Shown: positions 9,343 to 27,105 of the stretch, one piece after another
Numbering within the stretch: position 1 is the first letter of the stretch
Layout: the number at the start of each line of letters is the position of its first letter
Source of the DNA: a virus
Taxonomy: Duplodnaviria; Caudoviricetes
Length of the DNA: 30,754 nucleotides
Virus record (IMG/VR): IMGVR_UViG_3300032257_000080
Coordinates: 1-30,754 of that record
Strand: one strand, 5' to 3'
Notes under the pieces: model-generated
The model's database searches: none
What the model saw: only the letters and a program-made list of their open reading frames with translations
Told to the model about the DNA's origin: nothing
Translations under genes and position numbers: made by a program

Positions 9343-9351
9343 AGTTAGTCT

Positions 9352-9960
9352 CTATGTATAACTCATCATTAATGGGAGTATTGTACCACCTCCGCCCCCG
9401 CCAAGGTCTAGCCCTTCCCAAGAAGTGGCTCTGGATGCGCTTGAATTGCTAAAGTGTGTTACTCCATAATCGCCGCTGGTATGGTCTGTATCTGTCCATG
9501 CCGTTGAAAACCCCCCAGAGGTAATCTCCACATCATTAATAAAGGCGGTTAATGTTGCCGTGCTACCTGATACTGTCACCTCAAGGCGTAGTGTATCGCT
9601 AACAGCCAAGGACTCAGAAGATGAGGCTTTATCGTTGTTAGACGTGCCTGATACTGTAGACCCGCCCACAAGCCCATCTGTACCATCATCACATCGCAGG
9701 AAATAACAATTTGCGCTGCCATCCGTTGCTATATGGACACCAACACCTGTATAAACAAAGCCTGTAATAGCGCCAACGACTATCTCACTGGACTGGTCTA
9801 CCGATGGAGATTGGCCTGTGTAACCAGCTATATTCGAGCCTGCGTCATTGCCGTAAGCAGCATTGCTGAAAATATAGTACGTACCCTGATTTACAACCCA
9901 GTTAACATCATGAGTAGGCAAGGTTGTAAAGTTAGTATTTGTGAACGCATCCGAAGCCAT
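9352..9960 (-). CDS. Putative virion beta-sandwich (lectin-like) protein
   Basis: 202 aa, S/T/G-rich, DTLRLEVTVSGSTATLTAFIND beta pattern, poly-Gly linker near C-terminus. Confidence 0.55.
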   Translation of the reverse strand: MASDAFTNTNFTTLPTHDVNWVVNQGTYYIFSNAAYGNDAGSNIAGYTGQSPSVDQSSEIVVGAITGFVYTGVGVHIATDGSANCYFLRCDDGTDGLVGGSTVSGTSNNDKASSSESLAVSDTLRLEVTVSGSTATLTAFINDVEITSGGFSTAWTDTDHTSGDYGVTHFSNSSASRATSWEGLDLGGGGGGTILPLMMSYT

Positions 9961-12054: not shown

Positions 12055-12070
12055 GCTCTTATCCTTATCT

Positions 12071-12106
12071 AAAAATAAGCCCTACCTCATTCGTGCAGGG
12101 CTTATT
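12071..12106 (-). terminator. Intrinsic terminator-like hairpin
   Basis: AATAAGCCCT/AGGGCTTATT 10-bp inverted repeat ending in a T run on minus strand. Confidence 0.6.
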
Positions 12107-12235
12107 CAGTTCTTAATATTTCTCTATGTTTATGAGGTAAATCTATTTAGTTAGTCCATGATTGCAAATCCTCCGGTCATAGCGTTAATAAATATATGTT
12201 CTCTGCACCCAGAAAGCCGCAATAAAGCGGCTGGT

Positions 12236-12268
12236 AAAAAACTCCGGCTGCTAGGATGCAAACCGGAG
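12236..12268 (-). terminator. Intrinsic terminator-like hairpin after exonuclease gene
   Basis: CTCCGG/CCGGAG stem followed by TTTTTT on minus strand. Confidence 0.55.
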
Positions 12269-12331
12269 AACATACTCCCAACGCAGGGAGTGACAGGGTG
12301 GCAAGATATACCGCTTGCCGTCGGATTGGGG

Positions 12332-14113: not shown

Positions 14114-14661
14114 TTAACCAGCTCCAATAGCTTCTTTTCTTCTTCTGAGTTTATCCTTCCGTGATTTGGATGAAATCCATATCTGAATTCTGCTGATTTA
14201 CGAGCGCAGATTGCTTCAAATTTATCTTTAAAGTGTCCGATGTATATGTTTTTATGATTTGCCTTTATTCTGACAAGCCAAGCTGAATCTTTTTTGTTCC
14301 AAACGAGACCCACTACTCCAGACGTATTATTTTTTTGTATTGTTCTATTTTTTTGATTTTCGAGTTTTGAAACGCTTCTCAAATTACACCACCTGTTGTC
14401 GGTTCTAATATGGTTTATGTGGTCTATTTCATCTGGCTGCTCGCCGGTCATATAAACATAGGCGACTCTATGTGCTAAATACACCATATTATCCATAAAC
14501 AAATACAAATATCCGTCTGATGTGGTTGGCCTACAAACAACCGGAGAGTAGTGTATTTTCTTATTTTTTTTCCATTCAAAAAAACCAGTATCGGGATCGT
14601 AAACTACAGTGTCTATTGTTTTCTCATAGTCAATGTGTCTATACTTATTCATCATTCCCAC
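14110..14661 (-). CDS. HNH homing endonuclease with AP2-like C-terminal domain
   Basis: LAHRVAY...IDHINHIRTDNRWCNLR...ENQKN HNH motif; NTSGVVGLVW...IGHF...AICARKSAE AP2 pattern. Confidence 0.92.
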   Translation of the reverse strand: MGMMNKYRHIDYEKTIDTVVYDPDTGFFEWKKNKKIHYSPVVCRPTTSDGYLYLFMDNMVYLAHRVAYVYMTGEQPDEIDHINHIRTDNRWCNLRSVSKLENQKNRTIQKNNTSGVVGLVWNKKDSAWLVRIKANHKNIYIGHFKDKFEAICARKSAEFRYGFHPNHGRINSEEEKKLLELVK

Positions 14662-14855
14662 CCTCTATTTATTCTGTTGCCGTTACTGTCGAACCTGATC
14701 TTTGAGTTTTCAATACTTTTATCAAATGTCATGAACTCAGGCAGTCCGTAGATTTCGATAGCTTCACTAATTAGCCATGCCGCCATAATAGCCAGCAGGA
14801 CTAATAAACACTTGAAGCACCTTATTATCCTTAAATCCTTTTTGCTTGGTCTCAT
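14652..14855 (-). CDS. Small membrane protein
   Basis: 67 aa with one hydrophobic helix. Confidence 0.6.
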   Translation of the reverse strand: MRPSKKDLRIIRCFKCLLVLLAIMAAWLISEAIEIYGLPEFMTFDKSIENSKIRFDSNGNRINRGWE

Positions 14856-14865
14856 TGGCTTGTCC

Positions 14866-15075
14866 TTATTTGCCCCAAAGTTCTTTGGCTTTTTTTAGGG
14901 CTTTGATCATGTTGTCAATATCAGCATATTCACACAAATATTTTGTTTTCTCTTCGTCATCAAAATAAATACCGACTGTTACAGCGTCAGCCATAACAAG
15001 CCTGTCATTAGAATCATCAAACTTAATTTCTGTGATTTCTTCTTTTACTTTATCTCTAATATCTAATGTAGCCAT
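14866..15075 (-). CDS. Hypothetical protein, first gene of leftward early operon
   Basis: 69 aa, purine-rich RBS, downstream of consensus promoter. Confidence 0.75.
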   Translation of the reverse strand: MATLDIRDKVKEEITEIKFDDSNDRLVMADAVTVGIYFDDEEKTKYLCEYADIDNMIKALKKAKELWGK

Positions 15076-15113
15076 CTCTCTTCCCCTGTCTGTATTTATT
15101 GTTTCGATGGCTA

Positions 15114-15143
15114 ATTATAGGCATAGCTATATTTGATTGTCAA
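15114..15143 (-). promoter_or_regulatory. Leftward early sigma70 promoter
   Basis: Perfect TTGACA-18nt-TATAAT on minus strand. Confidence 0.85.
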
Positions 15144-15153
15144 CTACTAACGA

Positions 15154-15168
15154 GTATTATTTTAATAC
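15154..15168. promoter_or_regulatory. Palindromic candidate operator between divergent promoters
   Basis: GTATTA-TTT-TAATAC. Confidence 0.45.
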
Positions 15169-15178
15169 GCTGTTTAGG

Positions 15179-15207
15179 TTGACATTCGCATACTATAGGA
15201 TTAGTAT
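15179..15207 (+). promoter_or_regulatory. Rightward early sigma70 promoter
   Basis: TTGACA-17nt-TAGTAT; ATACTA/TAGTAT inverted repeat overlaps the -10. Confidence 0.8.
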
Positions 15208-15235
15208 CATAGGCACATTACAAAAAAGGTGATTT

Positions 15236-15448
15236 ATGAGTCTATTAACAATTACGTCAAAACTACTTAAAGAGTGTCCATTATCCAAGCCATTTATTGC
15301 AGATGAGTTCGGTTGCTCTATTGGGTATCTGAATGATATTTCAGCCATGTCAGGCGACCCCGGCATTAAAAAACTGGAATGCCTGCACGATTGGCTGATT
15401 GATGAAAAGGCGCATCGAGCAAAGCAGCAAAGGAAATGCAAAAAATGA
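15236..15448 (+). CDS. Cro-like helix-turn-helix regulator
   Basis: 70 aa, IADEFGCSIGYLNDI HTH and DPGIKKLECL; first gene after rightward promoter; AGGTGA RBS. Confidence 0.7.
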   Translation: MSLLTITSKLLKECPLSKPFIADEFGCSIGYLNDISAMSGDPGIKKLECLHDWLIDEKAHRAKQQRKCKK

Positions 15449-15654
15449 GCAAGACCATGCAAATGAACTATTGCAACGGCTGTGTTTATGTGATGAACAA
15501 CGAAACCGGCGAATGTGACAATATTTTTGCTTTTGATTATCTGGATAAGGTCGAGGAAATATCGCCAGAGTTCAGAGATTGGCCTGACCTACATGAAGCA
15601 TGGAAGTATTACCGTAACGAAATAAGCAAGCCCTTACCGGCTTTGAGGAATTGA
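15445..15654 (+). CDS. Hypothetical protein
   Basis: ATGA overlap with Cro-like gene. Confidence 0.65.
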   Translation: MSKTMQMNYCNGCVYVMNNETGECDNIFAFDYLDKVEEISPEFRDWPDLHEAWKYYRNEISKPLPALRN

Positions 15655-15655
15655 T

Positions 15656-15928
15656 ATGGCTAAGAAATTAAACCGCTGGAATGGTCGAGCAACTGACTGG
15701 GCTATAAACAATAAAAAAGTTCAGCGTATTTATATCGGTGCATTTAGTCGTGCAGATGCTTCAAGAGCCTTGAAGGAAGCAGGTTATTTGTACGGGACAG
15801 ATAGCGAATTAAAGAATTATTTTTCTGAATGCTGGGGAAACTCAATGGACGGCATTAATCTTGACCGTGGCGTATGGGTGTCTTTCAGCGGGCATAGCTC
15901 AAAAGAAGTTATTGAGAGGATATTATGA
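15656..15928 (+). CDS. Hypothetical protein
   Basis: 90 aa, GAGGA RBS. Confidence 0.75.
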   Translation: MAKKLNRWNGRATDWAINNKKVQRIYIGAFSRADASRALKEAGYLYGTDSELKNYFSECWGNSMDGINLDRGVWVSFSGHSSKEVIERIL

Positions 15929-16275
15929 ACCTAGACAACCTAACAAACCCAGAGCTTGACAGGCTTTGTGCTGAAAAGATGGAGTGGAAGCTTGATGGTT
16001 TCTCGCTGGAAGAAGATAGATTTGGCGACATCCTTATGGATGAATACGAAACGCCGAAACTGTATTTCAGCCCTACCACAAATAAAGATCAGTGCTTTGA
16101 TTTGCTGATTGAGAATTTATTAACAGTCACCCCGCCTTGTTATGGTAGTGGTAAATGGAGCGCGGAAGTTTATGTTCCCAAAGGCGATGATAATCACAGG
16201 TTTCGATTTCATACAGAAGACACCGACCCACTACGGGCAATCGTTAAGGCTTACATAATGAGCAAGGGGGAGTGA
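15925..16275 (+). CDS. NinX-like / phage ABA-sandwich family protein
   Basis: ELDRLCAEKMEW...FSPTTNKDQCFDL...DPLRAIVKAYI pattern. Confidence 0.65.
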   Translation: MNLDNLTNPELDRLCAEKMEWKLDGFSLEEDRFGDILMDEYETPKLYFSPTTNKDQCFDLLIENLLTVTPPCYGSGKWSAEVYVPKGDDNHRFRFHTEDTDPLRAIVKAYIMSKGE

Positions 16276-16466
16276 TGGGATTAATAACTAAAATGGAGTT
16301 AATACATCCTACTAATAAGAATAAAATTGTCAGGTTAGAAAAAGATGCTTATTCGCTTAATTTAATGGCTTGTAGAAATGGCTACCAATACTCAGGAATG
16401 ACAATTGATGAGGATATGCTACCAATAATTAAACAAATTATCGAAGACTGGGAGCGTAACCAATGA
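16272..16466 (+). CDS. Hypothetical protein
   Basis: Operon-packed ORF with GGGGGAG RBS. Confidence 0.7.
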   Translation: MMGLITKMELIHPTNKNKIVRLEKDAYSLNLMACRNGYQYSGMTIDEDMLPIIKQIIEDWERNQ

Positions 16467-16648
16467 CTAACCCAGATTTGAAGCCGTGTTGTAGCTCGTG
16501 TGAGAACTTAGGTTATGAGTCTCCACAGCCAGATCAGCCTTATCCTGAGATATGGTGCATGAAAGGTCATTTTGATTGCCCTAGCTCGTTAGATGAGCTG
16601 CACGAACCGATTAATTGTAAGGATTACACCCGCGAGGACAACAAATGA
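16463..16648 (+). CDS. Cys-rich hypothetical protein
   Basis: CCSSC...C..GH...C; overlaps neighbours by ATGA. Confidence 0.7.
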   Translation: MTNPDLKPCCSSCENLGYESPQPDQPYPEIWCMKGHFDCPSSLDELHEPINCKDYTREDNK

Positions 16649-17016
16649 TTAATATTACTGATGAAGAATTAAATGATTCGATACAACAATTGCAAATGCT
16701 TTTGTATAAGGTTTCTGACGTTGAAGACATTTCTGTATACGCCCCTGTTCTAAAAAAACTTATCGCAGAACACGAAGCCACGAGAGGTATGGAATGGGTT
16801 AGCGTTGATGAGCAGATGCCTCCTATAGGTGTGCTAGTAGATGTATGTATAAAATTCAGCGAGGACGATTACGGAAGGGTTACCGATTGCGAGTTTACTA
16901 CTAAGTATGGATGGGGAAAAGATGGTGAAAGTCTTCATTCATATCTGGCTTTTGTTTTTATTGGAGTAACTCATTGGAGGCCAATACTACCACTACCTAC
17001 TGGAGAGAGTGAATGA
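16645..17016 (+). CDS. DUF551-domain protein
   Basis: EWVSVDEQMP...VTHWRPILPLP signature. Confidence 0.8.
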   Translation: MINITDEELNDSIQQLQMLLYKVSDVEDISVYAPVLKKLIAEHEATRGMEWVSVDEQMPPIGVLVDVCIKFSEDDYGRVTDCEFTTKYGWGKDGESLHSYLAFVFIGVTHWRPILPLPTGESE

Positions 17017-17225
17017 GCGAATTTTTGAAGTGTGTAATAGAATCTGATGTGCTTCATTTTAAAGATAACTTCATCAAAGAAAAGAAATACGAGATAACTA
17101 AAGCTGGTGATCTAGATGTAATAACTGCTGAAGATGGCGTTAAATATCCTGTTGATATTGGAAACCACAGTTTAATAGATATGGACATTACATTTAACTT
17201 AAAACCAAAGTTCGTGCCAGCTTAA
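17013..17225 (+). CDS. Hypothetical protein
   Basis: 70 aa, ATGA-coupled. Confidence 0.7.
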   Translation: MSEFLKCVIESDVLHFKDNFIKEKKYEITKAGDLDVITAEDGVKYPVDIGNHSLIDMDITFNLKPKFVPA

Positions 17226-17248
17226 CACCCCAACCATGAGGAATTGAG

Positions 17249-17482
17249 ATGGATATTTATGAAGTAGTAAAAAAATTAATAGGAGATGTAGAGCCGATTG
17301 GTGATTCAACTATCGACAGCATGACCTATGAAAATTTGCAGAAACTAACATCGCTTGCAGAGCAATTACTAACAGATATATGCCGGATCGAAACTGAATA
17401 TAAAAACAATCATCAGTATAGCATGAAGCGAGCGTCAGAGCATTGCGCTGGATTTTTAGATGCTAATGGTGTGCATGAATGA
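17249..17482 (+). CDS. Hypothetical protein
   Basis: 77 aa, GAGGA RBS. Confidence 0.75.
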   Translation: MDIYEVVKKLIGDVEPIGDSTIDSMTYENLQKLTSLAEQLLTDICRIETEYKNNHQYSMKRASEHCAGFLDANGVHE

Positions 17483-17504
17483 TTAACCCCTAATAGGTGA
17501 TGTG

Positions 17505-17684
17505 ATGACAGATAGTAGATTAGGTATTTTTGGCGATGGTATCGAAAGAGCTGATAACAAAAGAGAACGGGAAAGACTACTGTGTGAAAAACATAAGCGC
17601 TTCCCTTGCCGTGAATGCGGAACTAAGTATTATCCAGAGTGTGAGTGCTCTTTTTGTAAACCAATTAACCCACCCAACAGGTGA
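17505..17684 (+). CDS. Cys-rich hypothetical protein
   Basis: CEKH...CREC...CECSFC; AGGTGA RBS. Confidence 0.65.
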   Translation: MTDSRLGIFGDGIERADNKRERERLLCEKHKRFPCRECGTKYYPECECSFCKPINPPNR

Positions 17685-17889
17685 TAGGAGGCGAGACGAG
17701 ATGAGCAATCAGGTGGATGATCAAGTATTGTTGTTGTCGTTAAAATCAGTTCTCACAGCACTTGATAATCTATTAAGTGACTGTATCGACGATAATGGAA
17801 ACCTAAAGCAGCCTAGTAAACAATCTATTATGAAAGCCAAGGGCTACTTGCCCGCTAAGTATAGAAACGCATACAACAGGTGATAGGAG
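17675..17889 (+). repeat. Exact 16-bp direct repeat CAACAGGTGATAGGAG flanking one gene
   Basis: Copies at 17675-17690 and 17874-17889. Confidence 0.85.
17701..17883 (+). CDS. Hypothetical protein
   Basis: MSNQVDDQ...; AGGAGG RBS supports start at 17701 rather than 17530. Confidence 0.7.
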   Translation: MSNQVDDQVLLLSLKSVLTALDNLLSDCIDDNGNLKQPSKQSIMKAKGYLPAKYRNAYNR

Positions 17890-17896
17890 ATTGATT

Positions 17897-18088
17897 ATGA
17901 GTGAAATAAGCAAGACAATACCCTTAAAAGAGCTTGAAAGATTATACAAACTTGCCGATGAAGCGGTAAGCCCAGAGGTTACGTTTTCAGAAGATTATGA
18001 GAAAATGAAAATACAAGCAGATGATATAAAAAGAAATAATATTTTGATTATCTGGAATGCTCTTGGAAAATTAACTGACCACAAATAA
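17897..18088 (+). CDS. Hypothetical protein
   Basis: AGGAG RBS then ATG at 17897. Confidence 0.7.
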   Translation: MSEISKTIPLKELERLYKLADEAVSPEVTFSEDYEKMKIQADDIKRNNILIIWNALGKLTDHK

Positions 18089-18099
18089 AAAATCCTGAA

Positions 18100-18128
18100 T
18101 TGACCTAGAGCCAAAACAGGATTATTAT
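18100..18128 (+). promoter_or_regulatory. sigma70 promoter preceding the long non-coding element
   Basis: TTGACC-17nt-TATTAT; AATCCTG/CAGGATT inverted repeat brackets the -35. Confidence 0.7.
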
Positions 18129-18134
18129 TAACTT

Positions 18135-18540
18135 TATCGGTGACCCTACCAAGGTCGTCGAAAGTATCAGAGGTTTAGGCAAAATACGATCAACGTGTCG
18201 ATAAGACAATTATATATCATATTTTCCTAATAGTTCAACTAATCAATTAATCTCTTGAATACTTTCGTAGCCGGTTCCTGACCAGAGGGTTATATTCGGG
18301 CTTTTTTCGGCTTACTGGCAAATAGGATTGATTTAGAACAAATGAATAACAAATCTAGGCAATGATTCGCCATATCAACCTAGCCCATGAAACTCAGTGT
18401 ATCTGAGATGTGATTTGCTCAAAGGATTGAGTATCTGGTTTAGCCAGAGGGGGAATAATTAGTACCTGTAATCTAGCCTAGAGTTAGACCAGAGCATGTG
18501 GACATGTTCATGGGGGAAAATGGCAGTGTTATGTCTAAAA
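18135..18540 (+). ncRNA. Candidate large structured RNA (or structured origin region)
   Basis: About 470-nt gap without a credible ORF, with many nested complementary segments found by eye. Confidence 0.55.
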
Positions 18541-18558
18541 TAAACGAGGAGAGGAAAG

Positions 18559-18732
18559 ATGAAATCAGTAAAAGAATTGAAAGAAGAGTTAAGTAAATTT
18601 GAAGACGGTGATTTATGTTTTGCCTATGAGGGTGAGGTTATTGGCATAGTAGTAAATAGGGGTGATAGGCAAGGAGTAATTTATTGCGGTGAAGGCAGTC
18701 TTAAAGAGAGCGAAACTAAGATTATCGATTAA
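18559..18732 (+). CDS. Hypothetical protein (57 aa)
   Basis: Not in ORF track. MKSVKELKEELSKF...; GAGGAGAGG RBS. Confidence 0.75.
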   Translation: MKSVKELKEELSKFEDGDLCFAYEGEVIGIVVNRGDRQGVIYCGEGSLKESETKIID

Positions 18733-18756
18733 CTTAAATAAATAGGAGATAGGAAT

Positions 18757-19023
18757 ATGAGCATAAGAAATGAGATTTTAAAATTAACAGCTTTTACCGG
18801 ATTTGAAAGCAAAGCCTGTTATGCGATGGCGGAAGAAGCTGCGAGAATTGCTGAAAAGTATGTCGGCGAAATAGATGAAGGTACTTTTGAGCAAGCCGCT
18901 AGGCCGCTAATAAAATACATTAACGAAAACCACCATATTCATGTGACCGCTATTGTTGATAGTGATCATGCCGAGATATTAGAAGGCATTAATGTATTCA
19001 GTACTAAGGATTACATCAAATAA
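18757..19023 (+). CDS. Hypothetical protein
   Basis: 88 aa, AGGA RBS. Confidence 0.75.
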   Translation: MSIRNEILKLTAFTGFESKACYAMAEEAARIAEKYVGEIDEGTFEQAARPLIKYINENHHIHVTAIVDSDHAEILEGINVFSTKDYIK

Positions 19024-19040
19024 ACCAAGAGGATAGAGAG

Positions 19041-19241
19041 ATGGATATTTTAGAAAAACTGTATGACTTTAATACTGAATTAACAAATGACGCTAGAATT
19101 GAGATAGCAGAAAGTGTACAGACGCTAATGGAATTGATCGGAAATTTAGTTGAATTATGCGATGAAGAAATAGCCGACCCAGAGGATTGTTCAGCACTAC
19201 AGTCAGCTAAAACATACCTCAAGGAGAGCAATAATGGCTGA
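19041..19241 (+). CDS. Hypothetical acidic protein
   Basis: 66 aa, GAGGA RBS. Confidence 0.7.
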   Translation: MDILEKLYDFNTELTNDARIEIAESVQTLMELIGNLVELCDEEIADPEDCSALQSAKTYLKESNNG

Positions 19242-19827
19242 TGAAACTCTGCAACTACTAAAGGCCTTCATAGATGCCATGGGTTATGAGTATAAGATAG
19301 ATGTTGTTGACCCCCTTGTAACACCCGTCGAGGCGATCTACAAAGTCACAAAGAAGCCCAAAAAGCTCCGCGAGACTAAGCAGGAGGGGTATAGCGAGGG
19401 CTTTCTTGAGCTTTGGTCTATTTACTCGCTGAAAGGAAAAGGAAGTAAACAAGCGGCATTCAGGCAATACAAGGCGCGAATGGCAGAGACAACCGATAAA
19501 AATTATTATCATAGTCACCAGCAAATGAAGAGGGGTATGCATAAATATGTGTTTTTCATTAAAGAGACTGGCCAATATTCTATGCACATGAGTACATTTT
19601 TAGGCAGAGACAAGCACTATCTAAATGACTTCACCATACCAGATAGCGTAGTTAAGAAAAACCGAGTCAAGCAAGACTGGGAGACCATACCCGAAAATGA
19701 GAACCATATACTAGCTTTCATTGAGAAGCACGGATTTAAAAAGTGTACTCAGGGCGAGACTACCAAGCACGTTATAAACCGCCTTCGAAGTGAGATAAGG
19801 GCGAGAATATTAGCAGAGGAAAAATAA
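19234..19827 (+). CDS. Putative replication initiator-like protein (C-terminal-domain type)
   Basis: FLELWSIY..KG.GSKQAAFRQY...MHMSTFL...HY pattern resembles C-terminal domains of phage replisome organisers. Confidence 0.55.
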   Translation: MADETLQLLKAFIDAMGYEYKIDVVDPLVTPVEAIYKVTKKPKKLRETKQEGYSEGFLELWSIYSLKGKGSKQAAFRQYKARMAETTDKNYYHSHQQMKRGMHKYVFFIKETGQYSMHMSTFLGRDKHYLNDFTIPDSVVKKNRVKQDWETIPENENHILAFIEKHGFKKCTQGETTKHVINRLRSEIRARILAEEK

Positions 19828-19828
19828 G

Positions 19829-19966
19829 ATGGGAATATGGTTTGGATGGAGAGAATTATTTATAGATGTTAATGGTTATCCGACAGATGAAGAAACTGAT
19901 TGGAAAGCTAGTTGTTTTATATTTTTTACGCATGTGATTTATATTGGAGAGGTAAAGCCAGCATGA
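19829..19966 (+). CDS. Hypothetical protein (45 aa)
   Basis: Not in ORF track. MGIWFGWRELF...; GAGGA RBS and ATGA overlap with next gene. Confidence 0.6.
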   Translation: MGIWFGWRELFIDVNGYPTDEETDWKASCFIFFTHVIYIGEVKPA

Positions 19967-20166
19967 AAAGATTCAAAGATACTGAAATAGCGTTATCCAA
20001 AGACGATCTTCAAGCAATATTAAGCGACTGGCTTAATGATGATGTTTTATCGTTTTCAACACAATATCAATTTATAACAGACATGAAAATAAAAGGTGAA
20101 AATAAATATGTAATTAGATTTGCGGTATCAACAGAAAAACCAGACATTAACCCAACCAATAACTAA
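19963..20166 (+). CDS. Hypothetical protein
   Basis: GAGGT RBS supports start at 19963. Confidence 0.7.
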   Translation: MKRFKDTEIALSKDDLQAILSDWLNDDVLSFSTQYQFITDMKIKGENKYVIRFAVSTEKPDINPTNN

Positions 20167-20177
20167 TAGGTGATGAG

Positions 20178-20381
20178 ATGGATATAGCAGATTTAGAAAA
20201 AAGACTAGCAAATACAGAGGCCGCTTTGATTGCGCTTTGGTCATTAACAAAAGACACAATGCCGCAAGAAGTTTTCAATAACACAGATAATATGATGAAT
20301 GAATATTTTGATGCTAATGAAAGCTATGGCTCAAATTTCAATATTAGAAATGGATTTAAGCATAAAGCCAGTAACCCCTAA
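20178..20381 (+). CDS. Hypothetical protein
   Basis: 67 aa, AGGTGA RBS. Confidence 0.7.
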   Translation: MDIADLEKRLANTEAALIALWSLTKDTMPQEVFNNTDNMMNEYFDANESYGSNFNIRNGFKHKASNP

Positions 20382-20400
20382 CCATTAAGCAGAGGTAGAT

Positions 20401-20598
20401 ATGAATGACAAAGATTTGACCGAATCTGAATTAGATCAATTAATCAGTAACGATATGCAATGTATTTCATTGATGATGCTGAGCGCTAAAAAATATTCAT
20501 TGTTAACAGAAGTTATTTATAGCTATGGTCTTGCGATGGCATCACATGGCAATGTGCCAAGAGCAGTCAATCAAGCCCTGATGGAATGGGATATTTAA
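20401..20598 (+). CDS. Hypothetical protein
   Basis: 65 aa, GAGGT RBS. Confidence 0.7.
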   Translation: MNDKDLTESELDQLISNDMQCISLMMLSAKKYSLLTEVIYSYGLAMASHGNVPRAVNQALMEWDI

Positions 20599-20617
20599 CC
20601 AACCAATAAGAGAGAAG

Positions 20618-20785
20618 ATGATGGATATAGAAAAGGTAAAAAGAGAGGTAATCGAAGCAATGTTAAGCGCCCCACCAAAAGACGGCAAATGTCATTGTGA
20701 TATGCGAACCAAGTTAGTTGGCGATGGCTGTAGTGTATGCAACCCAGAGTATTACGCTGAAATGATGGAAGATGAGACCGATTAA
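20618..20785 (+). CDS. Small Cys-motif protein (55 aa)
   Basis: Not in ORF track. ...CHCDMRTKLVGDGCSVCNPE... Confidence 0.65.
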   Translation: MMDIEKVKREVIEAMLSAPPKDGKCHCDMRTKLVGDGCSVCNPEYYAEMMEDETD

Positions 20786-20836
20786 CAAACCCAATACAAC
20801 CAGAGGGAATGATAGGTATTTACAATAGATAAACGG

Positions 20837-20865
20837 TTGATTATCGGAATCCGATAGAGTAGGAT
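20837..20865 (+). promoter_or_regulatory. sigma70 promoter with palindromic operator in its spacer
   Basis: TTGATT-17nt-TAGGAT containing TATCGGA-A-TCCGATA (20842-20856). Confidence 0.7.
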
Positions 20866-20890
20866 GTAGTTATTGAATAGGAGAATAGAG

Positions 20891-21118
20891 ATGAAATATT
20901 ATTTTTTTGGAGCATTATTTTTTGTTTTATCTGCATGCGATCATATTGTTCTTGATAATGACGAGCTCATTATTCATAGCGCTAAAGAAATCGAATCTGG
21001 TGTCAGGAAATACGAATACTCCATTAAAGATGGTAGTGATATCGGATGGGTATTAAAAACAAATAAAAAATTCTCTGTTGGTGATACTTTGATTTTTATT
21101 AAAGTTGACAAGGATTAA
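20891..21118 (+). CDS. Putative lipoprotein
   Basis: MKYYFFGALFFVLSAC: basic n-region, hydrophobic h-region, lipobox LSAC; AGGAG RBS. Confidence 0.7.
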   Translation: MKYYFFGALFFVLSACDHIVLDNDELIIHSAKEIESGVRKYEYSIKDGSDIGWVLKTNKKFSVGDTLIFIKVDKD

Positions 21119-21119
21119 C

Positions 21120-21317
21120 ATGCCTAAATCAAAACAACAAATCGACGCTGATCATTACAAGAAGAAAAAAGAAGGCGGCTGGTTCAAGTTCAGTAAATGG
21201 GTACACAAGGACAAGATCGAGCCTATTACTGAGAAAGAGATAATTGCATTCGCTAACGCTAAGACCGACAAGCGTGAGTTAATTAACTCCGTTGATGATA
21301 AGAGAGAGGGGAAATAA
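21120..21317 (+). CDS. Small basic putative DNA-binding protein
   Basis: MPKSKQQIDADHYKKKKEGGWFKFSKWVH, similar in pattern to small ribbon-helix-type phage regulators. Confidence 0.55.
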   Translation: MPKSKQQIDADHYKKKKEGGWFKFSKWVHKDKIEPITEKEIIAFANAKTDKRELINSVDDKREGK

Positions 21318-21319
21318 CA

Positions 21320-22462
21320 GTGGAATTACAAACAAAATTAATTATAGATACAATAAAACAAACAGGGAAAAATATTTCTGAACTTTCTCTTGATGAGAAG
21401 GTGAGCGCCATTAATGAAATAAAATTGTTTTTACATGAAATAAGCCCTTTTAGCTCAGAGCCGGTTGATTGCGTTATTTGGGAGAAATCTGACAGCGTAG
21501 TTGCTAACCAGTATAACCCTAATAAAGTAGCTCCACCTGAAATGGAATTGCTTGAAATTTCCATTATGAATGATGGATACACTCAGCCAATTGTTACTTA
21601 TCCGCATGATGATGTATCAGAAGTTGTGGATGGATTCCATAGGTCGAGAGTCGGAAAAGAATCAAAAGTTGTTAGTGAGAGAGTTAAGGGTTATTTGCCG
21701 GTAGTTTCGATTCGTAAAGAACAAACCAATAAAAACGACCGTATAGCATCGACTATTAGGCACAACCGAGCACGAGGAAAGCATCAAATAGATGCTATGT
21801 CTGAAATTGTTATTGAGCTAAAAAACAGGAACTGGACTAATACGCGAGTTGCTAGAGAGCTTGGCATGGACGAGGAAGAGGTGCTTCGATTATGTCAGAT
21901 TACCGGATTAGAGTATTTATTCTCTGATGCCGATTTCTCTGCCGCATGGGAAAGCGACGATACTGAGACTGGGTTTGAAGAATTATCCGATGAATTATCC
22001 GATGAAGAAATGGATGTAAGAATACCGCATAAAGAAGATACTGAACGGGTTATGCACACATACGACAAATGGGAATGTCATAAGGCCGGATTTTATGCGA
22101 GTAAATTCGATGGTATGACAAAGAATGAGTGCGAACAGGCGTACGCTGATTTTCTTTCCGATAGCGATAAGTTTTCCAACGCGCTAGATAAATTAACAAA
22201 TGAGTGGAAGTATTCATGCGAGCATTACCTGAGTAATCGTGCAATGAATAGGATTGCATGGCTAGGACAAGCAGCAATGTGTTATGCAACAGGAATTCCA
22301 AGTGTTTATTGCTCTGGATATAACCGTCTAACTAGAGAACAGCAAGAAGAGGCTGACAGCGTTGCGTTGAAGTATCTTAATAAATGGCGCGAAAACAACA
22401 ACATGAACACACTGGAAATGGATGAGGCGCTATCATCTGGCAGACAAGTGGAGATTTACTAA
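21320..22462 (+). CDS. ibrB: IbrB-like ParB/Srx-domain protein with extra C-terminal domain
   Basis: ANQYNPNKVAPPEMELLEISIMNDGYTQPIV, VVDGFHR, ASTIRHNRARGKH motifs; acidic linker then ~140-aa extension. Confidence 0.88.
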   Translation: MELQTKLIIDTIKQTGKNISELSLDEKVSAINEIKLFLHEISPFSSEPVDCVIWEKSDSVVANQYNPNKVAPPEMELLEISIMNDGYTQPIVTYPHDDVSEVVDGFHRSRVGKESKVVSERVKGYLPVVSIRKEQTNKNDRIASTIRHNRARGKHQIDAMSEIVIELKNRNWTNTRVARELGMDEEEVLRLCQITGLEYLFSDADFSAAWESDDTETGFEELSDELSDEEMDVRIPHKEDTERVMHTYDKWECHKAGFYASKFDGMTKNECEQAYADFLSDSDKFSNALDKLTNEWKYSCEHYLSNRAMNRIAWLGQAAMCYATGIPSVYCSGYNRLTREQQEEADSVALKYLNKWRENNNMNTLEMDEALSSGRQVEIY

Positions 22463-23679
22463 TGACTGCTAAAAAGTATTTAAATATCAGTGTTTATCAG
22501 GCCGCTAAAAAGCGTATTGAATTATCATTCGATAACTTTGAAAAGATTTATATTTCGTTTTCTGGTGGAAAGGATAGTTCTGTGATGACTCATATGGTAC
22601 TGGATGAAGCAAAGAAAAGAGGCAGGAAGGTTGGCTTGCTTATAATTGATCTTGAAGCACAATACCATGACACGATAGAGCATATTCATCAGATGGTTGA
22701 AATGTATAAAGACAATATTGATTTACACTGGATATGCGCAGAGATGCTTTTGAGAAATGCAGTTAGTAATTTTGAGCCTCGCTGGATTTGCTGGGATGAA
22801 GAAAAAAAAGATATATGGGTTAGGGAAAAGCCAGAATTAGCAGCCGATATGAGTCAATATGATTTCTTTCAGCCAAAGATGGAATTTGAAGAGTTTATGG
22901 TTTTATTTGGTAAGTGGTATTCGCAAGGAAAAGATACGGCGGCAATGATTGGTATCAGGTCAGATGAAAGCTTGCACCGTTATCGCGCCATTGTTAGCCA
23001 GAAGAATGGGTTAATGTATAACGATTGGAAATGGACAACCAAGGTATCAAAAAATCTTTTTAATGTTTACCCTGTATACGATTGGAAAACTGAAGATATT
23101 TGGATATATCACGGCAAAAACAAACATTTGCCGCATAATAAGGTATATGACCAAATGACAAAGGCGGGTGTTAAATTAAGTCAACAGAGATTGTGTCAAC
23201 CTTATGGAGATGACCAAAGACGAGGATTATGGTTGTATCATATTCTTGAGCCGATGACTTGGTATAAGCTCATAGAGCGCGTTAACGGTGTAAATTCAGG
23301 CGCGTTATACATTCAAGAAAATGGGAATATGACAGGCTACCATTCAATAACAAAGCCAGAGGATCATACATGGAAAAGTTTTTGTAATTTGTTACTAGCG
23401 ACAATGCCTAAAAAGACATCAGAGCATTATAAAAAAAGATTTAAAAAATTTATAGCTGGGTGGAAATTAAGAGGCTATGACAAGATTCCAGATGAAGCTC
23501 CTCATGATCTTGAGCGCAAATGCTGGGCTCCGTCTTGGCGAAGAATGTGCCGTTCTTTATTGCGTAATGATTACTGGTGTAAGGGACTTGGCCAGACACA
23601 GCCAAAGTCAGAAGCCTATGAGAAATTTAAAGCAATTAAACATAAGCGAAAATTAGAAGCGGAGATAGAAAATGGATAA
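22462..23679 (+). CDS. ibrA: IbrA-like PAPS-reductase-fold (PP-loop) protein, DUF3440
   Basis: SFSGGKDS PP-loop, GIRSDESLHR, YPVYDWKTEDIW, RLCQPYG, PSWRRMCRSLLRNDYWCKGL. Confidence 0.9.
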   Translation: MTAKKYLNISVYQAAKKRIELSFDNFEKIYISFSGGKDSSVMTHMVLDEAKKRGRKVGLLIIDLEAQYHDTIEHIHQMVEMYKDNIDLHWICAEMLLRNAVSNFEPRWICWDEEKKDIWVREKPELAADMSQYDFFQPKMEFEEFMVLFGKWYSQGKDTAAMIGIRSDESLHRYRAIVSQKNGLMYNDWKWTTKVSKNLFNVYPVYDWKTEDIWIYHGKNKHLPHNKVYDQMTKAGVKLSQQRLCQPYGDDQRRGLWLYHILEPMTWYKLIERVNGVNSGALYIQENGNMTGYHSITKPEDHTWKSFCNLLLATMPKKTSEHYKKRFKKFIAGWKLRGYDKIPDEAPHDLERKCWAPSWRRMCRSLLRNDYWCKGLGQTQPKSEAYEKFKAIKHKRKLEAEIENG

Positions 23680-24016
23680 TTTAGAAAAAATTACTTCCGA
23701 TTTATTAGTGTTTCGTGATGATAGGAATTGGGGTCAATTTCACACCCCTAAGAATTTAATTATGGCTATCAATGGCGAAAGCGGCGAATTAAGCAGCCTT
23801 TGTCAATGGGTTAATAATTCCGAGATATACGAAAATATTGAATTAAGGAATGATGTTTTATTAGAGATGGCTGATATTTTCATTTATTTGATAAATCTAT
23901 CTATCGTTTTAAATGTTGATCTGGTTGATATCGCAAATATCAAAATTGAAGAAAACGAAAAAAGATATCCCGTTGATTTGTGCTATGGGGCTAATACTAA
24001 AGCAGATAAGTTGTGA
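23672..24016 (+). CDS. mazG: MazG-like nucleotide pyrophosphohydrolase
   Basis: FRDDRNWGQFHTPKNL...ESGEL...EMADIFIYL...NEKRYP. Confidence 0.88.
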   Translation: MDNLEKITSDLLVFRDDRNWGQFHTPKNLIMAINGESGELSSLCQWVNNSEIYENIELRNDVLLEMADIFIYLINLSIVLNVDLVDIANIKIEENEKRYPVDLCYGANTKADKL

Positions 24017-24027
24017 GGAGCGAGATA

Positions 24028-24219
24028 ATGTCCCAGACTAGCGATATATTAAAAGCACTTAAGAAAGGCCGAAAGATTACGCCATTAGATGCGCTGTCAG
24101 AATTTGGCTGTTATCGACTTGCAGCGAGAATTGAAGAAATCCGGCGTTATCATACTATTGAGACTGAAATGGTGAAGGCTAATAATAAGCGGTTTGCCAG
24201 ATACAGTCTGGTGTCTTGA
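24028..24219 (+). CDS. Winged helix-turn-helix protein
   Basis: ILKALKKGRKITPLDALSEFGCYRLAARIEEIR...IET...ARYSL. Confidence 0.8.
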   Translation: MSQTSDILKALKKGRKITPLDALSEFGCYRLAARIEEIRRYHTIETEMVKANNKRFARYSLVS

Positions 24220-24220
24220 T

Positions 24221-24457
24221 ATGACTCGCCGCAGAGTACCAACCAAAGAGCAAATTGACTTTATGATCAAGTCTAAAGAAGGCTCTCAGGAGTGCGCTAT
24301 CAAGGTAGGATATAGCGCCGCCACTGTTTGTAAATATCGCAGATTATATGGCTATGGCATTAAGCATTATAAATTTGGAGACAAGGAAGCAGTTAAATTT
24401 AAGCAGCCGAACATGAGCAATCCAGCTAATAAATTTTTATATGGTGCAATAGTATGA
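24221..24457 (+). CDS. Small HTH protein
   Basis: ECAIKVGYSAATVCKYRR HTH pattern. Confidence 0.65.
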   Translation: MTRRRVPTKEQIDFMIKSKEGSQECAIKVGYSAATVCKYRRLYGYGIKHYKFGDKEAVKFKQPNMSNPANKFLYGAIV

Positions 24458-24684
24458 ATATTACATGCACCTGCGGTCAGTCGCTTGATCGAAATGTGAT
24501 GGGTATTAGATCGCATTTAGCCGGAAGCAAGCACCCAGAACTTAAGTTTCCATCTGGCAAGGTAAAACCTAAAGCGCTTGAAAAAGCCAGATACGCTTTA
24601 ATGTATTCGGAAACAAGTAGCCTTAATGAGCCTGCAGGAACTCAGGAAGAGAGAGTGCGCGCTAAAATGTCGGGGATTAGCTAA
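24454..24684 (+). CDS. Hypothetical protein, possible C2H2-type zinc site
   Basis: CTCG...H....H spacing; coupled to neighbours. Confidence 0.65.
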   Translation: MNITCTCGQSLDRNVMGIRSHLAGSKHPELKFPSGKVKPKALEKARYALMYSETSSLNEPAGTQEERVRAKMSGIS

Positions 24685-24920
24685 TGACAGTATTAACCGA
24701 TGAAATGAAGAAAATCATAATGGACTCGCCATTAAGCGGCATTCAGATTGCCAAGGAGTTAGGCGTAGGCCATACGACAGTAACCGTTTACCGAAGCTCT
24801 CACGGCTATAAAAAAGAGCATCGCGGATCGGTTAGAGGCGACAGAAGTAAACCGCCTCTTAAGAAAGAAGTTAGACCGGACAAAAATAGTTTTTTTAGTA
24901 TGAAGTTAATTAATAGTTAG
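24684..24920 (+). CDS. Small HTH protein
   Basis: QIAKELGVGHTTVTVYR HTH pattern. Confidence 0.7.
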   Translation: MTVLTDEMKKIIMDSPLSGIQIAKELGVGHTTVTVYRSSHGYKKEHRGSVRGDRSKPPLKKEVRPDKNSFFSMKLINS

Positions 24921-24929
24921 GAGATAGTG

Positions 24930-25121
24930 ATGGGGTTGAATGGTATAGAAACTAGATTTGCTTTTTTGCCTAGAGTCGTTAGTACATGGCGAGGCACAAA
25001 GGCATTAATCTGGCTGCAAACATATTGCGTTGATACTGGTAGCTATTTTGTGCCTCTTAATGGTGACGATAACGACTCGCCTTGGTGCAATAAACTGGGC
25101 TTTCTAAGTCTTGAATTTTAA
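24930..25121 (+). CDS. Hypothetical protein
   Basis: RFAFLPR...IWLQTY; AGGAG RBS. Confidence 0.65.
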   Translation: MGLNGIETRFAFLPRVVSTWRGTKALIWLQTYCVDTGSYFVPLNGDDNDSPWCNKLGFLSLEF

Positions 25122-25160
25122 ATTAACCCGCCCTTATGGGTGTATAATTGGAGAGAGAGA

Positions 25161-25343
25161 ATGAAAACAAGCACAATGTTAATAGTAGCAGCATTATTAA
25201 TTACGCCATGGATTTGGAACGCGGCAAAGTTTGCAAGCTGTGACTTTGAATCGAATTATAAATGCGAGGCAATTCACGGTATCGGCGTATTTGTTCCGCC
25301 AGCCGCTTATGTTACTGTCTGGTTTGATGATGACGGCGAATAA
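25161..25343 (+). CDS. Small membrane protein
   Basis: Hydrophobic N-terminus, CDF...CEAIHGIGV; GGAG RBS. Confidence 0.7.
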   Translation: MKTSTMLIVAALLITPWIWNAAKFASCDFESNYKCEAIHGIGVFVPPAAYVTVWFDDDGE

Positions 25344-25353
25344 ATAAGTTTAT

Positions 25354-25413
25354 GGCAACCAGCTACCGCCTTTTAACAATATGAATCAAGTAATAGGTAG
25401 TTGGTTGTCGCCA
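25354..25413 (+). ncRNA. Long hairpin ending in G-CCA (minihelix-like)
   Basis: GGCAACCAGCTACC pairs with GGTAGTTGGTTGTC (14 bp including G-U pairs), followed by GCCA. Confidence 0.45.
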
Positions 25414-25418
25414 TATAT

Positions 25419-25500
25419 GGTTGGTGTAGCTTAAAGTAGAGTGGTGTGCAAGCCTAGGAAATTGCCATCGGTGCAGGTTCAAGCCCTGTCACCAACCCCA
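25419..25500 (+). tRNA. tRNA-like element with non-canonical anticodon arm (identity undetermined)
   Basis: GGTTGGTG/CACCAACC acceptor plus CCA; TAGCTT..AGAG D-arm; GCAGG-TTCAAGC-CCTGT T-arm; extended anticodon stem with 10-nt loop. Confidence 0.7.
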
Positions 25501-25517
25501 ATATTAAGAGGTGGGCT

Positions 25518-25730
25518 GTGGAATTAATAAAAACAAATAGACCTCATTGGCATCCGATAAAAAATCTGGACACATTGAGACAGTTTACAATGTGCGAAGA
25601 TACAAGGCATGTTTTAGATAATTGGGGCATGAAATACTTAGATATTCGCATCGATATGAGAACAGGAAATTTTGCGGTAAGAGAAGGAAATACCGATAAG
25701 CCGCAATATATTAAAATAGCAAAAGAATGA
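25518..25730 (+). CDS. Hypothetical protein
   Basis: 70 aa, GAGGTG RBS, GTG start. Confidence 0.7.
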   Translation: MELIKTNRPHWHPIKNLDTLRQFTMCEDTRHVLDNWGMKYLDIRIDMRTGNFAVREGNTDKPQYIKIAKE

Positions 25731-25912
25731 ATACCGAACAAAGAATGCAAAAACAGCGAGCCTTTCACAGCCACCAATATGCTATGAAGCTGTATAGGGA
25801 TAAAACGGGATTGATGGCTGATGACTTTAAGCATAGAGCAAGCGTGTACGGTCGTGATTGGGCTGAGAAGATTTGGGGCTTGCGTAATTTGATCAAACGA
25901 GGTGAGAGATGA
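25727..25912 (+). CDS. Hypothetical protein
   Basis: ATGA-coupled on both sides. Confidence 0.65.
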   Translation: MNTEQRMQKQRAFHSHQYAMKLYRDKTGLMADDFKHRASVYGRDWAEKIWGLRNLIKRGER

Positions 25913-26049
25913 CAATATCAAAACGACAAAGAATAAAGCTAAGAAGTCGTAAATATAACGACATGAAGCCTCATGTATTTGATAAGCTGCTTGCGTTATT
26001 GCCTCATGTTATGGATGGGATAAGCATTCCTAATCACTATGAAAGCTGA
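25909..26049 (+). CDS. Hypothetical basic protein (46 aa)
   Basis: Not in ORF track. MTISKRQRIKLRSRKY...; GAGGTGA RBS; fills the gap before ninB. Confidence 0.55.
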   Translation: MTISKRQRIKLRSRKYNDMKPHVFDKLLALLPHVMDGISIPNHYES

Positions 26050-26500
26050 AACTATTTATCTAACCAGTCAGGACAAGGTGCAAGATGTAGTCGATACCAT
26101 ACTTAATCTTGAGGTCGGGAATAAATACAAGGTCGAGATATCTGACGCAGGATGTAAGACAAGCCGCCAAAACAGATACCAAAGAAGACTATGCAGGGAT
26201 GTCGCTAAATCTGGAATAGGAGGCCGGAACGAAGTAACACCAGAGAAGGTGCATATCAAATGCAAATACCTTTTCGCACTTCCTGTGATACTGGAAAAAG
26301 ATGAAAACTTTGCATGGCTTTATGAGATGGTTAGAAAGGAAGTTGATAACGATAAAGACAAGTTGATGTGGTTTGTCGATAAGCACGTAAGCACAATGGA
26401 TTTTACGGTTAGTGAAGGCGCTAATTATATTCAGGATATGATTGATTACTATGCCCCGATGGGAGCAAATCTGACCGATCCGAAAGAATACAATCTATGA
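26039..26500 (+). CDS. ninB: NinB family recombination protein
   Basis: KTSRQNRY..., STMDFTVSEGANYI pattern; adjacent to NinG. Confidence 0.75.
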   Translation: MKAETIYLTSQDKVQDVVDTILNLEVGNKYKVEISDAGCKTSRQNRYQRRLCRDVAKSGIGGRNEVTPEKVHIKCKYLFALPVILEKDENFAWLYEMVRKEVDNDKDKLMWFVDKHVSTMDFTVSEGANYIQDMIDYYAPMGANLTDPKEYNL

Positions 26501-27105
26501 AACAAACAGCCCTTAAGCCAGCAAGGAAGAAAGCCTGTAAAGTCTGTCAGGAGAAATTCACACCCCCTAATACACTCGCTCGCACCTGTAGCATTAAATG
26601 TGCAATTATTGACGGCGAATCAGCCAAGAAAGAAAGCATCAAGACCGAGAAGAAAGAAAACCGGAAGGCATTAAGGGAATATAAAGCAAACAACAAAACT
26701 TATAATCAGCTAATCAAAGAAGCATGGGCACCATGCAGTAAATTTATAAGGTTAGTCCGCGATATCAATGAGCCATGTATAAGTTGTGGGCGTTATGATC
26801 ATGAAATAACCGAGCCATTAACGGGTGGCAAATTTGATGCAGGCCACTACCTCGGTAAAGCTGCTCACCCCGAGTTAAGATTTCATCCTGATAATATTCA
26901 CAAACAATGCAAGACCTGCAATGGTGGCGCTGGTAAATACGCTAAGAAAAACCACACTGTCACACAGTCCTACAGGGTTAATTTAATCGAAAAGATAGGC
27001 GTTGATCGGGTCAACTACCTAGAAGGCCACCACCAAGCCCAAAATTGGACTCATGATGACCTCAAAGACATAGCTAAACACTATAAAGAAAGCTCAAAGC
27101 TTTAG
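26497..27105 (+). CDS. ninG: NinG/Rap family endonuclease
   Basis: CKVC...CSIKC, FIRLVRD...PCISCG...DAGHY...LRFHPDNIHKQC..CN. Confidence 0.92.
   Translation: MKQTALKPARKKACKVCQEKFTPPNTLARTCSIKCAIIDGESAKKESIKTEKKENRKALREYKANNKTYNQLIKEAWAPCSKFIRLVRDINEPCISCGRYDHEITEPLTGGKFDAGHYLGKAAHPELRFHPDNIHKQCKTCNGGAGKYAKKNHTVTQSYRVNLIEKIGVDRVNYLEGHHQAQNWTHDDLKDIAKHYKESSKL

Follow-up and report, generated by a model that had tools for sequence, protein, structure and literature searches.

What fills the longest stretch of non-coding DNA in a phage whose replication genes follow one another almost without a break? The question is posed by IMG/VR virus record IMGVR_UViG_3300032257_000080 (Duplodnaviria; Caudoviricetes), a contig of 30,754 bp with a completeness estimate of 59%, which was analysed whole and is called the window below. 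Its plus-strand early block contains a 470-nt gap (18089-18558), most of which had been described in an earlier note as one promoter-driven, multi-stem RNA. The answer that we favour, with roughly even credence, is that the gap is a control region at the head of a phage replication-gene operon, built of exchangeable pieces, and not one free-standing large RNA. The pieces would be a hairpin-promoter cassette, two promoters, a leftward antisense unit and a leader that hides the Shine-Dalgarno (SD) sequence of the first gene; each of these parts is of a known kind, and a novel large non-coding RNA (ncRNA) is not demonstrated.

A non-coding gap among closely packed genes

The gap lies in the early/replication block of small orphan genes on the plus strand (15236-27105), in which the genes are closely packed and mostly have overlapping stops and starts. 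Its largest open reading frame (ORF) is 34 amino acids long and all six frames are closed, with 7-13 stops each and all three stop codons in use. It is the sole internal stretch of at least 200 nt in the contig without cover by a 50-amino-acid ORF on either strand, which bears out the claim that it is the longest ORF-free gap of the window. Reassignment or recoding of a stop codon is ruled out, as every frame is closed by all three stops. For the 34-amino-acid ORF, located on the minus strand (18105-18209), a search of 1.84 billion representatives gave 0 relatives at E<=0.001, although so short a query has little power. Six-frame translation of the gap yielded nothing against all loci fetched for comparison except the shared cassette described below; no decayed ORF, a possibility that the earlier note had raised against itself, was found. 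ARAGORN reported no transfer RNA (tRNA) or transfer-messenger RNA (tmRNA).

The gap could also be a functionless spacer, or a recombination scar left by cassette shuffling in a hyper-mosaic early region, with helices and motifs that arose by chance. We consider this unlikely, if by no means negligible. The 470 idle bases stand out in an operon whose spacers measure ~0-24 nt, and a gene remnant would have to be very old, given the empty six-frame comparison and the number of stops per frame.

A hairpin-promoter cassette and a predicted leftward unit

At its upstream edge the gap shares DNA with a second phage. A 31-mer of the hairpin located there matched one viral contig, G001 (39.5 kb), and the match belongs to a 38-nt cassette (18084-18121) that starts at the stop codon (TAA, 18086-18088) of the upstream gene 17891-18088 and consists of an A-tract and a hairpin. 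G001 matches it at 100% identity, and within 1 kb on either side the two contigs have no other DNA in common. The hairpin has the stem AATCCTG/CAGGATT (18091-18123) and carries TTGACC within its loop; the shared 38 nt span the U-tract and the stem-loop and end 2 nt short of the stem's far end (18123). Read as minus-strand RNA, the hairpin has a folding energy of -15.1 kcal/mol (z -4.81 relative to shuffled sequences), is followed by U6AU3 and ranks 5th of the 17 terminator-like sites in the window. The plus-strand version reaches -8.9 kcal/mol (z -3.88), a difference of 6 kcal/mol that arises because the inner stem needs G-U pairs.

The cassette of G001 comes after the stop codon of a different gene and is followed by TGATATAAT, an extended -10 sequence, then by a leader of ~125 nt and a gene whose product starts MNYYPHHIGDF, which we take to be a replication protein of the DUF1376 type. 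If that label is right, the cassette appears to head replication genes in both phages and to be followed in both by a promoter. Aligned by blastn, the window and G001 share a collinear chain of short identities (25-68 nt, 93-100%) that sit exactly on gene junctions, covering last codons, stop, ribosome site and start, with unrelated genes between them: 16236-68, 16629-53, 16987-17016, 18084-18121, 19777-819, 20594-623, 20779-820 and 21246-313. The pattern suggests that gene cassettes have been shuffled through junction homology throughout the early region, 16236-21313. That the gap sits among such swaps favours a spacer or scar; that some of it recurs unchanged in other genomic settings argues against one. 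The window holds one copy of the cassette (allowing up to 3 mismatches) and G001 one; the other fetched loci hold none beyond the window's own copies, L001 and L093, and as an exact DNA pattern the cassette occurs 0 times in genome contigs. G001 also has a 457-nt ORF-free stretch of its own (8080-8536), accompanied by terminator-like hairpins (8103 and 8589); no part of the window aligned to 8080-8536 by blastn.

Further contexts come from sequencing run X1, a microbial-mat metagenome. One 625-nt contig of this run (depth 369) has 18084-18121 and then runs on as G001 does, and another joins the window sequence at 18123 from different upstream sequence. Contigs with 0 differing letters over 18289-18404 and 18375-18564 have a depth of 136-141, as against 56-58 for the flanking sequence (2.4 times), and one contig diverges after 18564, that is, past the shared SD, ATG and AAA. 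Positions 18171-18231 are not covered by contigs, a hole that carries no evidential weight. With caution, these contigs suggest that the cassette, the start of the first folded domain of the gap (domain 1, 18138-18267) and all of the second (domain 2, 18289-18564) occur in other genomic contexts of the X1 community, and that the pieces of the gap would be exchangeable modules, not one co-inherited 400-nt unit.

A comparable design is known from T4-type phages, whose promoter-early stem-loop (PeSL) cassettes combine a terminator with a promoter and are cross-over points of cassette shuffling (PMC2839356; PMC4122927). The likeness covers an intergenic stem-loop with a sigma-70-like promoter, placed after the stop of one gene and before the start of the next (PMC2839356), an AT-rich tract upstream of the -35 element, a start at the upstream stop codon, and retention between phages with unrelated flanking genes, exactly at identity break points; the G001 layout with its extended -10 sequence shows the same combination of stem-loop and promoter. 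PeSLs differ in being present in dozens of copies, clustered in hyperplastic regions of T4-type myoviruses, where our cassette has a single copy per genome. They also have the -35 element after the stem, not inside the loop, a stem that is a G/C run, as ours is not, and ~100 conserved nt, compared with 38 here. The phage studied here is not T4-like: its head genes resemble podovirus or lambdoid types and its portal and terminase are not of the T4 kind. The promoter and terminator roles of its cassette are predicted from sequence. Since the cassette is single-copy and differently arranged, and the phage is not T4-like, it matches PeSL in design and, by those descriptions, is not a member of the PeSL family. 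By analogy with the T4-type cassettes, its roles would be to insulate the operon upstream, to start transcription afresh and to offer a joint for recombination.

Two promoter-like sites stand face to face in the gap. The rightward one is TTGACC-17-TATTAT (18100-18128, plus strand), which the earlier note had correctly picked out; it scores 10/12 as a sigma-70-like promoter and has a predicted start at ~18135. The leftward one, TTGAAC-18-TATAAT (18209-18238, minus strand), likewise scores 10/12, with a predicted start at ~18202. Sites of at least 10/12 number four in 14500-20500, all within the two intergenic regions, two of them in this gap; the strongest pair of that interval is the divergent one at 15143 (-) and 15179 (+). 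From these motifs we infer the two promoters, their transcripts, the termination of the leftward one and any effect on expression. Transcription from the rightward promoter would yield a leader of ~424 nt. The leftward promoter, 67 nt inside this leader, would yield an antisense RNA of ~118 nt (18085-18202, minus strand) that would end at the cassette hairpin with its U-tract. The predicted antisense RNA folds with -31.5 kcal/mol (z -3.26, 1/200 shuffles as good), is complementary to the first ~67 nt of the rightward leader and is longer than the oop RNA of phage lambda (~77 nt). Convergent promoters of this kind would lower rightward expression, either through interference or through RNA pairing, in the manner of pO/oop upstream of lambda O.

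In lambda, pO/oop opposes pR transcription ahead of gene O, and both convergent-promoter interference and antisense action are documented (PMC3985674). There, as in our prediction, a short leftward unit is directed against a rightward early transcript upstream of an O-type gene and ends at an intrinsic terminator that adjoins the upstream gene; unlike oop, the predicted RNA would overlap the leader and touch the upstream gene at its stop codon only, sparing the 3' coding end, and its site is 1 kb away from the O-like gene instead of at the start of that gene (PMC3985674). When 17900-18800 was compared by blastn with 50,697 phage records there was no match, and hence no sequence homology to lambdoid oop regions. 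Antisense RNA also attenuates the rep leaders of plasmids such as pT181 and pIP501. Like these leaders, the gap has a predicted antisense promoter within the leader of replication genes; unlike them, it has no alternative terminator/antiterminator fold that we could find. Attenuation of the pT181 type was dropped, as blocking 18135-18202 in silico neither improves the terminator nor frees the SD, which stays paired; we therefore propose no coupling between the antisense and SD mechanisms.

Folding of the leader and its predicted Shine-Dalgarno helix

The 3' end of the RNA proposed in the earlier note coincides with the SD and start codon of a gene of 57 amino acids and unknown function, the first after the leader (18559-18732, plus strand), which fits a leader and tells against a free-standing RNA. 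Three viral-contig relatives of this gene have coding sequence directly upstream, no such leader and no upstream similarity. A pyrimidine tract with six Ts, CTTTTTTCG (18301-18309, plus strand), is the predicted anti-SD: in every plus-strand fold it pairs with CGAGGAGAG (18545-18553), the SD of gene 18559. The helix is found in both the minimum free energy (MFE) and the centroid structures, with a pair probability of 0.82-0.93 across four transcript definitions, and its partners are 245 nt apart. Between them lies the multi-branched core of domain 2, with closing stems 18356/18532, 18369/18520 and 18384/18509, so that the whole module (18289-18564, plus strand) runs from the anti-SD tract through the core to the SD, GAGGAGAGG, and ATG 18559; the higher-depth X1 module thus contains both partners of the helix. 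On average the SD region is paired at 0.94, the top value among 58 gene starts that were all scored in the same context, and 2/200 dinucleotide-shuffled leaders reach that value (mean 0.48, standard deviation 0.20).

Because SD pairing is high, ranks first and is rare in shuffled leaders, the fold model suggests that the T-run is better read as an anti-SD than as the tail of a terminator. The terminator-like hairpin with T6 (CCTGA/TCGGG, 18269-18312, plus strand) proposed in the earlier note did not stand up: tested as 18266-18316, it has a z-score of -0.24, is equalled by 77/200 shuffles and comes 16th of 17 terminator-like sites, and so is not significant as a terminator. A plus-strand attenuator based on an intrinsic terminator was rejected as well, the U-run sitting inside the outer stem and the hairpin being at chance level. 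That both best promoter-like sites, one of the better-ranked terminators and the most sequestered SD coincide in the gap argues against an idle spacer.

Leaders that sequester an SD are well known, among them fourU and ROSE-type thermometers and translational riboswitch platforms. As in these, a U-rich tract is predicted to pair with the SD; unlike the thermometers, the gap has partners far apart and not within one small hairpin, and 17900-18800 gave no Rfam thermometer or riboswitch match at E<=10. The pairing would close domain 2 and hold off translation of the first gene until the fold opens. A bolder claim, which we think improbable, is that domain 2 is a mobile non-coding cassette: an SD-hiding leader RNA swapped before different first genes of replication operons among mat phages and working with an oop-like antisense RNA that ends at the shared terminator cassette. 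If true, this would define a new family of exchangeable phage riboregulators.

How strongly does the gap fold? All the earlier note's helices that we recomputed, namely the long-range stems and most hairpins, pair as written with 0 mismatches (GCTC/GAGT was checked by eye only). Domain 1 (18138-18267, plus strand) consists of a hairpin at 18138-18160, with 2 G-U pairs on the plus strand only, abutting a long imperfect hairpin at 18159-18267. At these limits it has a z-score of -3.77 on the plus and -4.81 on the minus strand, and among 131-nt windows the one over domain 1 (z -3.81) takes 8th place in 944 values, which puts it within the contig's top 1%; 5 of the 7 windows ranked above it are coding sequence. 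The long hairpin of domain 1 is structured beyond chance. Domain 2 is borderline. Its core, cut at the helix ends of the earlier note, has z-scores of -3.30/-3.12 (+/-), and only 1/168 values from arbitrary 182-nt controls are <= -3.3, a comparison that favours the chosen limits; at the limits of the shared module, 18289-18564, the scores are only -1.59 (+) and -2.21 (-).

Larger segments stand out less. As 230-nt halves, domain 1 scores -2.26/-3.39 and domain 2 -1.56/-2.85 (+/-); in control windows of the same size from the same contig (54 of 67 planned windows run, giving 108 values), 9/108 values are <= -2.26 and 3/108 are <= -3.39. The whole 468 nt score -2.43 (+) and -4.07 (-), with 0/100 shuffles as good on either strand. 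The gap thus folds better than shuffles overall, as the earlier note had expected, though only moderately so, several coding windows being as good. Its fold signal is not strand-specific, and the argument that frequent G-U pairs point to a plus-strand RNA fails: G-U pairs make up 13% of MFE pairs on the plus and 11% on the minus strand, and the minus-strand z-score is the better one. The remaining 131-nt windows of the gap, from 18201 to 18526, have z-scores between +0.47 and -1.52, so that 6/7 windows starting within it are unremarkable; this, together with whole-domain z-scores inside the range of coding windows and the lack of conservation outside one sample series, is what a chance-folded spacer would show. 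Elsewhere, 131-nt windows with z <= -4, beyond any gap window, lie at 9231-9361 (+), 15991-16121 (+), 18851-18981 (-), 24441-24571 (+), 17941-18071 (+) and 12156-12286 (+); all are coding except 12156 (+), which is sited in the spacer 12055-12331. A 182-nt window at 14954 (+), across the divergent early promoters, has a z-score of -3.48.

The two abutting stem-loops of domain 1 begin 3 nt past the predicted rightward start. This recalls the antiterminator RNAs putL/putR of phage HK022, two abutting stem-loops in the early transcript just past the promoter, though those of the gap are predicted (PMC9378689), and, as in the put setting, no N or Q gene was recognised in the window. The put element is ~70 nt long (PMC9378689), compared with ~130 nt for domain 1. 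Domain 1 has no similarity in the phage collection (put itself was not compared) and no conserved relatives, and the terminator to be overridden is not credible here.

Searches for known families and homologues gave little. The earlier note had not recognised a family, and cmscan against Rfam 15, which took in riboswitches, ribozymes, group I/II introns, C4/CI-type phage RNAs, GOLLD, ROOL, HEARO and tmRNA among others, found no family match in the gap, either at the gathering score or at E<=10. Within 17900-18800 three matches at E<=10 reached 14.5-17.5 bits where the gathering scores are 36-45, and all three fall outside the body of the gap. In 72,556 plasmids blastn found nothing that matches the gap. 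A search with nhmmer, the homologue check that the earlier note had proposed, gave nothing at E<=10 for the gap and its halves against 80 loci with ParB-like genes, which share with the window only the ParB-like and PAPS-reductase genes. As an exact DNA pattern the domain-1 hairpin occurs 0 times in viral contigs, and a 24-mer of domain 2 occurs 0 times in genome contigs and 0 times in viral contigs. Gap DNA compared with 32 whole viral records gave a best E of 0.005 over 22 nt, nothing credible. Covariance models, each built from the single sequence of one domain, recovered nothing but that sequence in 967,287 bases of related phage DNA and had no match in 24 whole records. Relatives of the genes are as scarce: the O-like gene has none in viral contigs and, in metagenome contigs, only the window's own contig and a 27%-identity fragment; none was found for Erf; portal relatives are confined to 8 short contigs, whose records have no match to the gap. 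On present sequence collections, the phage appears isolated.

Where does this leave the single RNA of the earlier note, one promoter-driven plus-strand ncRNA of ~400 nt acting as a replication primer or origin RNA, a put-like antiterminator or a ribozyme-like RNA? The promoter-like site directly upstream, the stem-loops just past its start, the top-1% window over domain 1, the z-score of the domain-2 core at its own limits and the absence of coding capacity all speak for it, and domain 2 seems to move between genomes as a unit. We nonetheless judge it improbable: the opposite strand of the whole element folds better, the MFE structure accounts for ~zero of the ensemble, the internal terminator does no better than chance, Rfam offers no match, and neither sequence nor structure homologues turned up in the 0.97 Mb of related phage DNA or the 24 whole records. 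Moreover, G001 shares the cassette and neither domain. What survives of the earlier interpretation is a non-coding regulatory element behind a promoter and upstream of a replication-like gene, in keeping with the cassette kept in G001 and the SD sequestration; a single novel ncRNA, ribozyme or primer RNA is not supported, the fold being modest and not strand-specific, the terminator a chance one and the pieces differently distributed.

Several points weigh against the control region of exchangeable pieces as well. Public runs that hold the stretch amount to one DNA run, X1, and no RNA run. No homologue of domain 1 or domain 2 was found in any collection searched. For X1, each contig comes with a single depth value, which bears on sharing only indirectly. 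We designed the SD-pairing tests once the helix was already known, so they are no more than suggestive, and a U-run pairs easily with any purine-rich SD. Whole-domain z-scores are equalled by several coding windows of the same contig. Promoter-like sites are overall not enriched (17 found, 21.5 expected), and the cassette might just as well form a promoter's upstream half, with a UP-like A-tract and a -35 element. Finally, the ~125-nt leader of G001 has no recognisable leftward promoter, and the antisense RNA is therefore not a conserved feature.

Should the control-region reading be right, it would show how entry into the replication genes is wired in a highly mosaic phage lineage that is uncultivated, with regulatory DNA (the hairpin-promoter cassette, or a whole leader) shuffled at the same short junctions as protein-coding cassettes. 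Mobile regulatory cassettes, described for T4-type phages, would then extend to a lambdoid or podovirus-like group. The gap neither opens a long-standing question nor establishes a new RNA class.

An improbable origin of replication and the neighbouring genes

The first gene after the leader is followed, within the same block, by a lambda-O-like replication initiator gene of 197 amino acids (19234-19827, plus strand). Its product matches PHROG replication and replication-initiation families (E 4e-10 and 1.5e-9), and in tblastn it shows 27-31% identity to phage replication protein O over 52-57% of its length. Could the gap be a DNA element, an origin recognised by this initiator, with the hairpins acting as DNA structure beside an AT-rich stretch? 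We hold this very improbable. The gap does lie 0.7 kb upstream of the O-like gene, its two strands fold about equally, as DNA palindromes would, and 18200-18279 has 29% G+C; nearby 18000-18079, however, is lower still (25%). CTAG reaches its contig maximum in the gap (5 in 470 nt, the highest of all 470-nt windows), and 4/14 plus-strand copies of TYTAGSC fall within it, a motif picked after the data had been seen. No iteron family was found, all direct repeats being two-copy and scattered, and the gap has a single DnaA-box match, with 1 mismatch, in a window total of 50 (38 expected) that forms no cluster. A lambda-type origin, with several iterons beside an AT-rich stretch, was accordingly rejected for the gap. 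In lambda-type phages the origin lies inside the O gene, which also counts against an origin here, as does a 22-nt repeat at the 3' end of the O-like gene.

This direct repeat (19741-19762 / 19788-19809; AAGTG..AGGGCGAGA.TA) has its second copy kept in G001, in intergenic DNA downstream of an unrelated replication gene, and is a candidate for an origin or a junction element. The enrichment of CTAG/TYTAGSC spans 18105-18484, and the G001 leader holds 2/5 of the TAGGGC copies of that contig, 13 nt apart. The CTAG, TYTAGSC and TAGGGC copies could be protein-binding sites.

The early block further includes ParB-like, PAPS-reductase, NinB and NinG genes, the ParB-like/PAPS-reductase pair being a widespread module with varying neighbours. 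The head and packaging genes (portal, terminase), Erf, an exonuclease and an HNH gene are on the minus-strand arms. Between the first gene and the O-like gene, run X1 contains gene 18757-19023 in another version as well, which differs at 23 letters in 134 nt (18793-18926), largely at 3-nt spacing; its depth of 32, compared with 57, suggests co-existing strains. The only match of the whole window at Rfam 15 gathering scores is to the tRNA model, at 25420-25497 (plus strand, 39.4 bits), where ARAGORN reports no tRNA. A stretch identical to G001 at 95.6% (25121-25417) ends at the 5' edge of this match, and at the equivalent relative place G001 has a different and stronger tRNA match of 62.4 bits.

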